From NCBI RefSeq assembly GCF_003334385.1, contig NZ_QOWN01000053.1: DNA of 31,720 nt. One strand, given 5' to 3'. The notes beneath the pieces were generated by a model. It did no database searches and was not told the origin of the DNA. It saw nothing but the letters and a program-made list of their open reading frames with translations. This stretch comes from Escherichia coli. GTDB taxonomy: Bacteria > Pseudomonadota > Gammaproteobacteria > Enterobacterales > Enterobacteriaceae. A program made the position numbers and the translations under genes. This document shows positions 25,599 to 27,286 of this stretch, one piece after another. Within the stretch, counting starts at the first letter, position 1; each line of letters starts with the position of its first letter.

Positions 25599-25639
25599 TC
25601 ACCCTGTTAGAGGTGAACGACCAGCAATGTTAAAGAGCG
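25599..25639 (-). promoter_or_regulatory. nutR: boxA (GCTCTTTAACA) plus boxB hairpin
   Basis: Minus strand reads CGCTCTTTAACA (boxA) then TCACC-tctaacag-GGTGA hairpin; boxA is identical to the nutL copy. Confidence 0.65.
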
Positions 25640-25646
25640 GTGTTAC

Positions 25647-25871
25647 TTATTCAGCCTGGTTCGGATGAGGAAACAGGTGCGGTAAGTCCGGGCGAATTTC
25701 GTAAGCCTTAACCTGACCATTGGTGGCATTAACGATAGCGAAAACTTTTTCAGGAGAAACTTTTCCGCCTCGCAACCATTTATGAACAGCGGGCTGTGAT
25801 ACGCCGCAATCAGCTGCAAGTCGTTTTTGACTGCCAACAATATTCAAGGCTCGCTGAATCACTAAATTCAT
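25647..25871 (-). CDS. cro: Cro-like repressor (about 74 aa from internal ATG)
   Basis: HTH KRLAADCGVSQPAVHKWL; first gene divergent from cI across the operator region; GAGGT SD. Confidence 0.65.
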   Translation of the reverse strand: MNLVIQRALNIVGSQKRLAADCGVSQPAVHKWLRGGKVSPEKVFAIVNATNGQVKAYEIRPDLPHLFPHPNQAE

Positions 25872-25907
25872 GAGCATACCTCTACAGCAAATAAAGCATA
25901 GCCAAAA

Positions 25908-25970
25908 ATAACATGAGTTATACACCAGGGCAATAACAATTGTTGTTTTACTTTTGATAACCGTGGTTAT
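25908..25970. promoter_or_regulatory. OR operator region: three ATAAC-N4-GTTAT-type palindromes between cro and cI
   Basis: ATAACATGAGTTAT (25908-25921), ATAACAATTGTTGT (25934-25947), ATAACCGTGGTTAT (25957-25970), spaced about 23-26 bp. Confidence 0.7.
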
Positions 25971-25981
25971 AGATTACAGGT

Positions 25982-26689
25982 ATGAAAACATTCGCAGAAA
26001 GACTAAATGCCGCCATGAGTTCAGCCGGGTTGTCACAAGCACAACTTGCAGACATGGTGGGGGTATCACAACCAGCCATACAAAAGATGTCATCTGGTAA
26101 AACAACCGGATCACGTAAAATGGTCGAATTAGCCAACGCGTTAAGAGTTCGCCCTGAATGGCTAAGCTCTGGTATAGGGTCAATGAGACCACAGAGCGCA
26201 GAAGAGCCATCTAATGCTCGGGAATCATCTTTAAAAGCTATCGCCTGGGATGATCATCAAAATGATAATGACGAATTTGTTGCGCTCCCCCTTCTAAATA
26301 TTTCACTTTCAGCTGGCGGAGGAAGTTGTGCATTGGAGGAGTCCGCAGAATTCTCTCTAGTTTTTAGGCGCTATTACCTGAAAAAAATGGGAGTTCCAGA
26401 AAAAGCGGCAAAGTTGGTCAGGGTTGTTGGGCAAAGCATGGAGCCAACACTCCATGATGGTGATGTGGTGGGGGTAAACACGCAAGATACGAGCATCAGG
26501 GATGGTAAAACATATGCAATTTGCCAAGCTGATTTGTTAAGGGTAAAAACGCTCATAGCCACGCCAACATCGGTAATTATCAGATCGATAAACCGCGAAG
26601 AGTATCCTGATGAAGTAATGAACAGAGAAGAATTCTACAAAAACGTAAGAATCATAGGGCGAGTGTTCTGGTCATCACATAGCTGGTAA
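25982..26689 (+). CDS. cI: CI-type prophage repressor (HTH plus LexA/S24 autocleavage domain)
   Basis: N-terminal HTH (LSQAQLADMVGVSQPAIQKM) and C-terminal S24 signature (VVGQSMEPTLHDGDVVGV...K); divergent from cro. Confidence 0.85.
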   Translation: MKTFAERLNAAMSSAGLSQAQLADMVGVSQPAIQKMSSGKTTGSRKMVELANALRVRPEWLSSGIGSMRPQSAEEPSNARESSLKAIAWDDHQNDNDEFVALPLLNISLSAGGGSCALEESAEFSLVFRRYYLKKMGVPEKAAKLVRVVGQSMEPTLHDGDVVGVNTQDTSIRDGKTYAICQADLLRVKTLIATPTSVIIRSINREEYPDEVMNREEFYKNVRIIGRVFWSSHSW

Positions 26690-26813
26690 TCAGACTCCAA
26701 CTGAACTTTTGCTATAAGAACACTCACGAAGAACGGCCTTTTATTGTGCTCAATACCACCGATGGTAAACCATTCGCCAAGTAGCCAATTCATAAAATGC
26801 CATTTCTAAATCC

Positions 26814-26839
26814 CCCGGCTCCAGTGCCGGGTTTTATTT
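26814..26839 (+). terminator. Intrinsic terminator downstream of cI
   Basis: CCCGGC-tccagt-GCCGGG hairpin followed by TTTTATTT. Confidence 0.6.
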
Positions 26840-26841
26840 AC

Positions 26842-27063
26842 TTAATTACACAGTCGCATATCCTGAAGTAACACATCTATAGCTAACTTCACAGCGAGAT
26901 CATCCAATTCATCATGGTGAAGCACTCGGATCATTCCCGCAATAGCATCTGCTGAAATAGCTTCCCCAGTAGCAATAACCTCAAGCAACGACACCCCTAG
27001 AATTTCGACTACCCGCTGGTGCAACACACCAAATTCCCCTTCGATTAACATGCAATCACCCAT
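26842..27063 (-). CDS. Small acidic protein, function unknown (about 73 aa), between cI and pL
   Basis: MGDCMLIEGEFGVLHQRVVEILGVSLLEVIATGEAISADAIAGMIRVLHHDELDDLAVKLAIDVLLQDMRLCN; start abuts the OL/pL region; transcribed toward cI. Confidence 0.4.
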   Translation of the reverse strand: MGDCMLIEGEFGVLHQRVVEILGVSLLEVIATGEAISADAIAGMIRVLHHDELDDLAVKLAIDVLLQDMRLCN

Positions 27064-27158
27064 AACAATCAGCCTTTCCCCCTTGAAAATATCACGCGGA
27101 TACCACAAAAAATAAAATATTTTTGTTATCAGTCATTTATAACGTTTTTCATAAAATG

Positions 27159-27200
27159 ATAAATATAGTTATTGCACAACCAGATAACTTAGGTTATCTT
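27159..27200. promoter_or_regulatory. OL operators and putative pL
   Basis: ATAAATATAGTTAT (27159-27172) and ATAACTTAGGTTAT (27184-27197), same half-sites as OR; TTGCAC -35 at 27172-27177 and TATCTT -10 at 27195-27200. Confidence 0.6.
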
Positions 27201-27246
27201 CAATTCAACAGCAGGACGCTGGAAGCCAAACGGGACAGATTGGCCG

Positions 27247-27286
27247 GCTCTTTAACATTGATGGACTCTCAACCTAACCGTTGAGA
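27247..27286 (+). promoter_or_regulatory. nutL: boxA (GCTCTTTAACA) plus boxB hairpin
   Basis: boxA at 27247-27257; TCTCAAC-ctaacc-GTTGAGA hairpin at 27267-27286; located between pL and N. Confidence 0.7.

Follow-up and report, generated by a model that had tools for sequence, protein, structure and literature searches.

The closest described relatives of the locus studied here are the N/nut antitermination system of phage 21, the immunity region of the Shiga-toxin phage PA28 and the genetic switch of lambda and 434. The phi21 boxB loop is named as CUAACC, and in the solved phi21 complex the first and sixth bases of the loop form a C-C pair (PMC12550061); our description of this loop is based on that paper and on a sequence match to PDB 1NYB. 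For PA28, a Stx2a phage of the PST3 type (KP682381 / NC_041935), operators were predicted earlier (PMC4587872 Table S5), and the same switch region has been tied to RecA-independent Stx2 release in O157:H7 (PMC10458857). The PA28 records carry the nut sites and operators without annotation. Since the switch region is tied to a Stx2 release phenotype, a correct operator and nut map would be useful to its researchers.

Here we analyzed a 31,720-nt stretch of Escherichia coli DNA (contig NZ_QOWN01000053.1 of assembly GCF_003334385.1), hereafter the window, with positions counted from its first nucleotide. The comparison covered sequence identities, hairpins with the covariation of their stems, how the operators cluster and are conserved, and mosaic boundaries, with GenBank OL657228 as the phage 21 reference. 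The window very probably contains the early control region of a lambdoid E. coli prophage, composed of two modules that can be exchanged independently of each other. We assign the first module with high confidence to a phage 21-type N antitermination system, made up of N and the two nut sites, of which nutL lies between pL and N while nutR separates cro from cII. The second is, very probably, an immunity cassette at ~25660-27205 between the nut sites, which belongs to the PA28 / Stx1a-phage type and not to imm21.

As a whole, the region is a prophage control region of the ordinary lambda-like kind; it is real, classical and already known, and its importance beyond annotation is little. The locus confirms that lambdoid phages can exchange the N/boxB recognition pair separately from the CI/operator immunity pair, each as a module of its own.

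A phage 21-type N/nut system

The elements of the first module are as follows.

27397-27702, plus strand: N antiterminator, 101 aa, phrog_271
27385-27390, plus strand: ribosome-binding site AAGGAG upstream of N
27247-27257, plus strand: nutL boxA GCTCTTTAACA, identical to the phage 21 nutL boxA
27267-27286, plus strand: nutL boxB hairpin UCUCAAC-CUAACC-GUUGAGA, identical over 20 nt to the annotated phage 21 nutL stem-loop
25628-25638, minus strand: nutR boxA GCTCTTTAACA, the same 11-mer as at phage 21 boxA-R
25597-25618, minus strand: nutR boxB hairpin (G)UUCACCU-CUAACA-GGGUGAG(C), loop at 25605-25610, fold z-score -3.1

N lies just beyond the end of the interval covered by the preliminary description and aligns with phage 21 N over 97 residues at 83.5% identity (E 1e-55). 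Its arginine-rich motif (ARM; residues 8-29, ESKGTAKSRYKARREELIAERR) is of the phi21 type (GTAKSRYKARRAELIAERR) and agrees with the phi21 N peptide in PDB 1NYB at 21 of 22 residues, the sole change being A22E. The C-terminus of N (…SGRQKQRGKSIPAYYD) differs from this pattern in that it resembles lambda N more than phage 21 N, and it matches lambda N in 6GOV. The Pfam N_peptide model matches the protein weakly, and because no NCBIfam model matches it, N is labelled a hypothetical protein by PGAP / RefSeq.

The nut sites occupy canonical positions that match the phage 21 annotation, with nutL following pL and nutR following cro. They share one boxA, written as GCUCUUUAACA for the module. The 31.7-kb window contains exactly two copies of the 11-mer GCTCTTTAACA, with no further copy at one mismatch. 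This pair by itself is weak evidence, with at least two matches in 15 of 100 shuffles, and the context is decisive. At both nut sites boxA sits 9-10 nt upstream of a hairpin, and minimum-energy folding predicts both boxB hairpins, each with a 7-bp stem. When five distinct versions of the hairpin found in nature are compared, pairing holds in all 35 stem cells and loop positions 1-5 (CUAAC) are invariant. Five of the seven stem pairs are altered on both sides, a covariation score that was reached by none of 500 shuffles. Compared with the annotated phage 21 nutR, the nutR boxB of the window has an identical stem and a single changed loop base, C6 to A.

The preliminary description, made from the sequence alone, had proposed a phage 21 ARM in N, a boxA common to nutL and nutR, and boxB loops CTAACC and CTAACA, and had named alignment to phage 21 N and nut sequences as the way to check or refute this. 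Our results bear out each of these points: N and nutL align as described, and nutR is one loop base off.

Since the nutR loop is CUAACA and not CUAACC with its C1-C6 pair, binding of N at nutR could be weaker. An extreme form of this view is that the C6-to-A change, A22E or both abolish N-boxB recognition, so that the system is a decayed remnant with antitermination lost or confined to nutL. The departure from the solved CUAACC hexaloop and the acidic residue within the ARM speak for such decay. We nevertheless consider it very unlikely. PA28 has the same N(E22) and the same nutR (CUAACA), and strains with PA28-like phages release Stx2 in a manner dependent on the N-cI-cro region; the combination recurs at ≥99% identity in ~49 complete E. 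coli genomes. CUAACA is also found in locus L134, where the ARM has the canonical A22 and the cassette is of imm21 size, and in L024, which belongs to a different N subfamily and has a compensated stem. Finally, all ORFs in the region are intact.

The A22E change puts a negative charge into the RNA-binding ARM helix of N. An association between E22 of the ARM and the nutR loop CUAACA was perfect in the first 19 loci, and it was rejected as linkage to the cassette in view of L134 and L024. It is very unlikely that A22E and the nutR loop change together make N strength differ between nutL and nutR. If true, such a difference would tune the pR operon in phages with a PA28-type cassette and, in the end, toxin output in Stx phages.

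An immunity cassette of the PA28 type

The second module carries, in the order cro, oR, cI, small ORF and oL, a LexA-like CI, Cro, three operators at oR, and two strong operators plus a doubtful third at oL. Its genes and terminator are listed below.

25647-25871, minus strand: cro, 74 aa, phrog_35
25982-26689, plus strand: cI repressor, 235 aa, with HTH_3 and Peptidase_S24 domains
26814-26831, plus strand: predicted intrinsic terminator after cI
26842-27051, minus strand: ORF of 69 aa, antisense to cI, phrog_3946, a hypothetical protein according to PGAP

This cassette is already known from PA28. The CI and Cro proteins are 100% identical to those of PA28, and the DNA of PA28 and of Stx1a-converting phages is 98.9% identical to the window over 25500-27618. 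Both nut sites are the same in PA28. After position 27618, which lies within N, the window departs from PA28, and the overall N identity is 73.7%.

By its domains, CI is a LexA-like phage repressor with a helix-turn-helix (HTH_3, residues 15-61) and an S24 domain (Peptidase_S24, residues 108-229). It is predicted to cleave itself, with Ala111-Gly112 as the candidate cleavage site and Ser152 (GQS152M motif) and Lys189 (RVK189 motif) as candidate catalytic residues. Among solved structures, the 434 repressor is nearest to its DNA-binding domain, while the nearest solved structure for Cro is a lambda-family Cro (3BD1). The 69-aa ORF has nine close homologues; no Pfam or NCBIfam match and no named homologue was found for it.

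The cassette resembles the lambda/434 switch in gene order, in the three operators that stand at even distances between the divergent genes cro and cI, and in its LexA-like S24 CI; with 434 it also shares the 14-bp operator length. It differs in having only two clear oL sites and a small antisense ORF in place of rexAB. The operator sequence differs from those of lambda and 434, and therefore the immunity specificity should differ as well.

The preliminary description had assigned the immunity module, too, to the phage 21 type. According to this reading, the entire block that runs from nutR to nutL would be imm21, with its repressor, Cro and operators. It draws on the fact that N, nutL, nutR and cII all align with phage 21, and it has a precedent in classical genetics, where N and the nut sites move along with the imm21 substitution. 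However, the alignment to the phage 21 genome breaks off within the block. Window positions 25234-25659 are 78.7% identical to phage 21 DNA and positions 27206-27666 are 90.2% identical, whereas no DNA similarity is detectable across 25660-27205. The left-hand junction with the homology is at the cro stop codon and the right-hand one at the annotated pL transcription start: homology restarts at window position 27206, which is position 3998 of L001, one base off the annotated phage 21 pL start at 3999.

The proteins and the cassette sizes argue in the same direction. The likeness of CI and Cro to their phage 21 counterparts is that of generic helix-turn-helix proteins: CI shares 32% identity with the full-length 217-residue phage 21 CI over a 68-residue helix-turn-helix domain only, and Cro 40% identity over a 30-residue helix-turn-helix stretch only. 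The annotated phage 21 operators are of another kind (TTAAG-N4-CTTAA), and the 8.4-kb early region of phage 21 contains no ATAAC-N4-GTTAT site at ≤1 mismatch. Among viral contigs, one 21-type nut pair flanks at least four kinds of unrelated cassettes (1088, 1608, 2419 and 2902 bp). Genuine imm21 cassettes between identical nut sites are 1088 bp long and cluster apart from the 1608-bp type of the window. An imm21 identity of the block is thus highly improbable, and the claim of phage 21-type immunity has to be given up in favor of a PA28-type cassette.

A related cassette occurs in SH2026Stx1, where it is joined to another N and boxB; the CI and Cro of the window are 85% and 86% identical to their counterparts in that phage. 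A P22-type label for the SH2026Stx1 N, suggested by the P22 ARM and boxB, is tentative; a PDB sequence search did not return the P22 peptide.

Predicted operators and promoters

The operators and promoters proposed for the cassette are given below. The operator numbers are assigned by position, and no strand is assigned to these sites.

25908-25921: operator ATAACATGAGTTAT, oR1; SH2026Stx1 keeps the half-sites and differs in the 4-bp center
25933-25946: operator ATAACAATTGTTGT, oR2, one mismatch
25957-25970: operator ATAACCGTGGTTAT, oR3
27128-27152: uncertain third oL site, with candidates ATCAGTCATTTAT (27128-27140) and ATAACGTTTTTCAT (27139-27152, two mismatches)
27159-27172: operator ATAAATATAGTTAT, oL2; its ATAAA half-site is the same, at the same position, in SH2026Stx1
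27184-27197: operator ATAACTTAGGTTAT, oL1
25905-25933, minus strand: proposed pR, TTGCCC-17-TATTTT
25947-25975, plus strand: proposed pRM, TTTACT-17-TAGATT
27172-27200, plus strand: proposed pL, TTGCAC-17-TATCTT, with a start near 27206-27207

The five numbered operators are supported by the scan, by comparison with SH2026Stx1 and by the earlier predictions for PA28, being the reverse complements of the published PST3 operators (PMC4587872 Table S5). The three 14-bp oR operators are spaced at 24-25 bp. The preliminary description had proposed five ATAAC-N4-GTTAT operators, and five is what the scan of the whole window returned at ≤1 mismatch, at 25908, 25933, 25957, 27159 and 27184. The idea that AT-rich promoter sequence produced these palindromes by chance, and that they are no repressor operators, can point to the AT-richness of both control regions and to the 21 sites scattered over the window once two mismatches are allowed, but it is almost certainly wrong: at ≤1 mismatch all five sites fall either between cro and cI or upstream of nutL, against a chance expectation of 0.50 and with five or more reached in none of 100 shuffles, the sites recur every 24-25 bp, SH2026Stx1 retains the half-sites while centers, spacers and flanks diverge, and the recognition-helix region of CI (SQPAIQKMSSG) is identical in the two phages.

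The third oL operator remains ambiguous. Our own candidate at 27139-27152 disagrees with the published site at 27128-27140, and the sole half-site kept in SH2026Stx1 is ATAAC.

The three promoters were read by eye, pR in parallel to pL, and a strict sigma-70 consensus scan did not report any of them. Both pRM hexamers are kept in SH2026Stx1. The pRM transcript would begin at or beside the cI ATG and yield a near-leaderless mRNA, given the -10 hexamer TAGATT. The cI mRNA of lambda is likewise near-leaderless.

A model for the switch

We then propose a model for how the region would work, with all binding and regulatory steps taken over from the biology of lambda, 434 and phage 21. CI dimers bound to the operators would keep pR and pL shut in the lysogen. 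CI bound to the middle oR site lies next to the pRM -35 and would activate pRM, and CI at the cI-proximal oR site overlaps pRM and would repress it. DNA damage would trigger self-cleavage of CI at Ala111-Gly112; pL and pR would then fire, with the pL transcript giving N. The arginine-rich helix of N would bind the boxB hairpins on the nascent RNAs and, with NusA, NusB, NusE and NusG assembled on boxA, N would enable RNA polymerase to pass downstream terminators.

Genes outside the two modules

Downstream of nutR lies cII, together with elements that recall the phage 21 pRE.

25234-25530, minus strand: cII, 98 aa, 73.7% identical to phage 21 CII; phrog_191 CII-like activator, CII family regulator according to PGAP
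25508-25521, plus strand: TTGC-N6-TTGT direct repeat TTGCTGTAACTTGT within the cII 5' end, candidate CII site of pRE
25522-25549, plus strand: promoter-like match near the repeat, from a promoter scan

The repeat occupies the same position as the annotated CII site of phage 21 (ttgynnnnnnttgy) and is likely the CII binding site of pRE.

No Rfam family covers the nut sites. The sole Rfam match in 24900-27900, to AgvB, scored 20.7 bits against a gathering threshold of 56 (E 0.88) and was treated as chance. Its position is that of a terminator antisense to cII.

A regulatory core similar to that of phage 21, as proposed in the preliminary description, can be upheld for N, the nut sites and partly for cII, and solely for these; it does not extend to CI, Cro, the operators, Q or the replication genes. 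Q is unrelated to Q21, and the replication genes of the window are DnaD-like and DnaC-like, where PA28 has O and P. Between Q and S the window contains no stx-sized ORF.

The lysis cassette is arranged as follows.

12545-12760, minus strand: S, pinholin-type holin, 71 aa, 91.5% identical to S21-71, with dual starts Met1/Met4 and matches to holin PHROGs
12007-12540, minus strand: R, lysozyme-family endolysin, 177 aa, 32.9% identical to R21 (E 4e-24), with a SAR-like N-terminus
11047-11514, minus strand: Rz spanin, 68.6% identical to phage 21 Rz
11109-11279, minus strand: Rz1 lipoprotein, a lipobox ORF embedded in Rz

The earlier assignment of this cassette to the phage 21 type is correct in kind, with S a close match and the R triad shared, but the identity of R to R21 is low and ~490 bp of small ORFs, with no assigned function, separate R from Rz. 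The S extension also differs, reading MYQM and thus lacking the Lys2 of S21-71 (MKSM). The triad E35-x8-D44-x5-T50 of R occupies the same positions as in R21. The N-terminus of R contains a weakly hydrophobic segment from residue 9 that may be of the signal-anchor-release (SAR) kind; its 19-residue window has a hydropathy of 1.68 with 47% Gly/Ala/Ser/Thr, compared with 2.11 and 63% in R21.

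Antitermination is of phage 21 type

Within the window lies a lambdoid prophage, its early region running in the opposite orientation to the standard lambda map. Gene assignments in this region agree across PHROG, Pfam and PGAP, the exception being N, which is a hypothetical protein in PGAP/RefSeq. A preliminary description had placed an immunity and antitermination module of phage 21 type at 25599-27286. Every item that it listed is present in the window; its reading holds for N, for the nut sites (the boxA and boxB RNA targets of N) and broadly for the lysis type, but is mistaken on the immunity determinants. 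As a whole, the region is a standard lambdoid mosaic that deposited and published phage genomes already contain almost base for base, and is not novel.

Early-region features of the window (coordinates, strand where assigned, feature)
23151-24980, minus: DnaC-like and DnaD-like replication genes
25001-25219, minus: small ORF (phrog_2751) between the replication genes and cII
25234-25530, minus: cII
25597-25618, minus: nutR boxB hairpin UUCACCU-CUAACA-GGGUGAG, predicted minimum-energy fold
25647-25871, minus: cro
25905-25933, minus: proposed pR, TTGCCC-17-TATTTT, overlapped by the cro-proximal operator
25947-25975: proposed pRM, TTTACT-17-TAGATT; the middle operator adjoins the -35 and the cI-proximal operator overlaps the -10
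25982-26689, plus: cI
26814-26831, plus: terminator after cI
26842-27051, minus: 69-aa ORF antisense to cI, located between the cI terminator and oL
27172-27200: proposed pL, TTGCAC-17-TATCTT, overlapped by oL1 and oL2
27267-27286, plus: nutL boxB hairpin UCUCAAC-CUAACC-GUUGAGA, predicted minimum-energy fold
27397-27702, plus: N

The fully annotated genome OL657228 served as the phage 21 reference. DNA alignment matches window 25234-25659 to the phage 21 stretch that spans cII and nutR up to the cro stop codon (78.7%), and window 27206-27666 to that from the pL start through nutL to N (90.2%). The right-hand junction falls at the transcription start that OL657228 annotates for pL. The N and cII proteins are 83.5% and 73.7% identical to their phage 21 counterparts. 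The arginine-rich motif (ARM) of N, described beforehand as that of phage 21, indeed differs from the 22-residue phi21 peptide (PDB 1NYB) by a single change, A22E.

The boxA said to be shared by nutL and nutR, GCTCTTTAACA, occurs in exactly two copies in the window, at 25628-25638 (minus) and 27247-27257 (plus), each followed 9-10 bases downstream by a 7-bp hairpin, boxB, with the expected CTAACC or CTAACA loop. The annotated boxA and boxB of phage 21 nutL are identical base for base to those of the window, whereas in nutR the boxA and stem are the same and the window loop differs by C6 to A. The hairpin was compared in five distinct natural versions (phage 21, the window and viral contigs): every one of the 35 stem cells pairs, five of the seven pairs change on both sides, and the covariation score was reached by 0 shuffles; loop positions 1-5 are constant in these versions and position 6 is C or A. 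Two IMG/VR loci with the window-type cassette, L136 and L140, have the nutL loop CUAAUC instead of CUAACC, a natural change at the otherwise constant position 5.

E22 and the CUAACA nutR loop co-occur in all window-type-cassette loci that have both the nutR variant and N. The coupling of the two is nevertheless not obligatory, as two other loci show: L134 has CUAACA with an A22 ARM and an imm21-size cassette, and in L024, from a different N subfamily, CUAACA sits on a compensated stem. In the solved complex, loop bases C1 and C6 pair with each other on either side of a GNRA-like UAAC turn (PMC12550061). With A6, this C-C pair would become a C-A mismatch, probably a tolerated one.

N itself is a mosaic, PA28-like up to 27618 and then continuing into a C-terminus (…SGRQKQRGKSIPAYYD) similar to that of lambda N and of the N in viral contig locus L114. 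Its C-terminal 37 residues match lambda N of the antitermination complex 6GOV. Viral contigs show at least four alternative C-termini of N following this 21-type ARM.

A repressor/operator cassette distinct from imm21

Between the two nut sites, DNA alignment to phage 21 gave no match anywhere in window 25660-27205, the repressor/operator cassette. Even when the full-length phage 21 CI is compared, window CI matches it in the helix-turn-helix domain only (32% identity there), and the likeness of the Cro proteins is limited to a 30-residue helix-turn-helix stretch. The annotated phage 21 operators are palindromes of the TTAAG-N4-CTTAA type, unlike the ATAAC-N4-GTTAT of the window, which is absent from the phage 21 early region. 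The assignment of the immunity determinants to phage 21 thus fails. Instead, the cassette DNA is 98.9% identical to that of the Stx2a phage PA28 and a series of Stx1a-converting phages, CI and Cro are 100% identical to those of PA28, and 49 of 5,426 complete E. coli genomes carry the cassette at ≥99% identity. Work on PA28-like phages has examined how their N-cI-cro switch region affects RecA-independent Stx2 release (PMC10458857).

The predicted ATAAC-N4-GTTAT operators were recovered at five window positions with at most one mismatch (25908, 25933, 25957, 27159 and 27184; 0.5 expected by chance), all of them either between cro and cI or immediately upstream of nutL. For the PA28 (PST3) phage, Yin et al. 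2015 predicted six operators (PMC4587872, Additional file 6, Table S5); five of these, reverse-complemented, are the window sites. In that table, the sites close to N seem to be named OR and the cI-cro sites OL, the reverse of the window positions.

A related cassette in phage SH2026Stx1 (CI 85%, Cro 86% identical) keeps the ATAAC/GTTAT half-sites and spacing of three oR and two oL sites, including the ATAAA variant of oL2, while the 4-bp centres and flanks diverge. The CI helix-turn-helix segment SQPAIQKMSSG is identical in both phages. Also kept amid divergence is an outward-facing half-site pair, GTTAT-N9-ATAAC, upstream of oL2 (27125-27143), which could represent a degenerate oL3 or else serve the promoter of the antisense ORF.

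CI has HTH_3 and Peptidase_S24 domains, with the candidate cleavage site Ala111-Gly112 and candidate catalytic residues Ser152 and Lys189 in place, and the 434 repressor is the nearest solved structure to its DNA-binding domain. From a reading of the sequence by hand, we infer pL, pR and pRM as tabulated; so placed, promoters and operators would have the geometry of the lambda switch, and pRM transcription would begin at or beside the cI ATG.

The 69-aa ORF within the cassette belongs to phrog_3946 (unknown function), has only nine close homologues and has no match in Pfam or NCBIfam; two unrelated plus-strand genes take its place in SH2026Stx1.

N/boxB and CI/operator pairs are exchanged independently

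Four unrelated cassettes are found in viral contigs between the same 21-type nutL and nutR sites: true imm21 (1088 bp, 12 loci), the window type (1608 bp, 5 loci) and two further types of 2419 bp and 2902 bp. Conversely, SH2026Stx1 joins its window-related cassette to a leader whose homology extends through boxA, beyond which boxB and N are different; these two we take to be P22-like. Together, these arrangements indicate that N/boxB and CI/operator pairs have been exchanged independently. The proposed phage-21-like regulatory core holds for N, the nut sites and in part cII, but not for the immunity determinants or for Q, which is unrelated to Q21.

Lysis genes and minor observations

A lysis cassette of phage 21 type was broadly borne out. 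S keeps both start codons of the S21 pinholin, to which it is 91.5% identical; R, a lysozyme-family enzyme, shares the residue positions of its E-x8-D-x5-T triad with R21 and has an N-terminus that is weakly hydrophobic and rich in Gly, Ala and Ser, but the two enzymes are only 33% identical. For Rz, identity to the phage 21 protein is 69%, and Rz1 is embedded. R and Rz are adjacent in phage 21, whereas ~490 bp (11515-12006) separate them here, with small ORFs of unknown function (phrog_4906 and phrog_1115). The Lys2 positive charge makes S21-71 an antiholin. The longer S product (12545-12760, minus) begins MYQM rather than the MKSM of S21-71, and therefore is without this charge.

A ~60-bp unit occurs twice in the small ORF 25001-25219 (25011-25073 and 25102-25163, 90-91 bp apart), and a third copy, 76-93% identical, lies within the DnaD-like replication initiator gene (24239-24324); the repeat could be origin- or iteron-related sequence, or else a partial duplication. 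A plus-strand segment at 25226-25287 contains a strong terminator hairpin (25258-25285), antisense to the cII 3' end, the position of OOP RNA in lambda; in 24900-27900 the sole Rfam match was a sub-threshold AgvB on this terminator (20.7 bits, E 0.88). The nin region contains an Ant-like anti-repressor gene (19284-19955, minus; phrog_377, E 2e-84), which could provide a RecA-independent way to inactivate CI.
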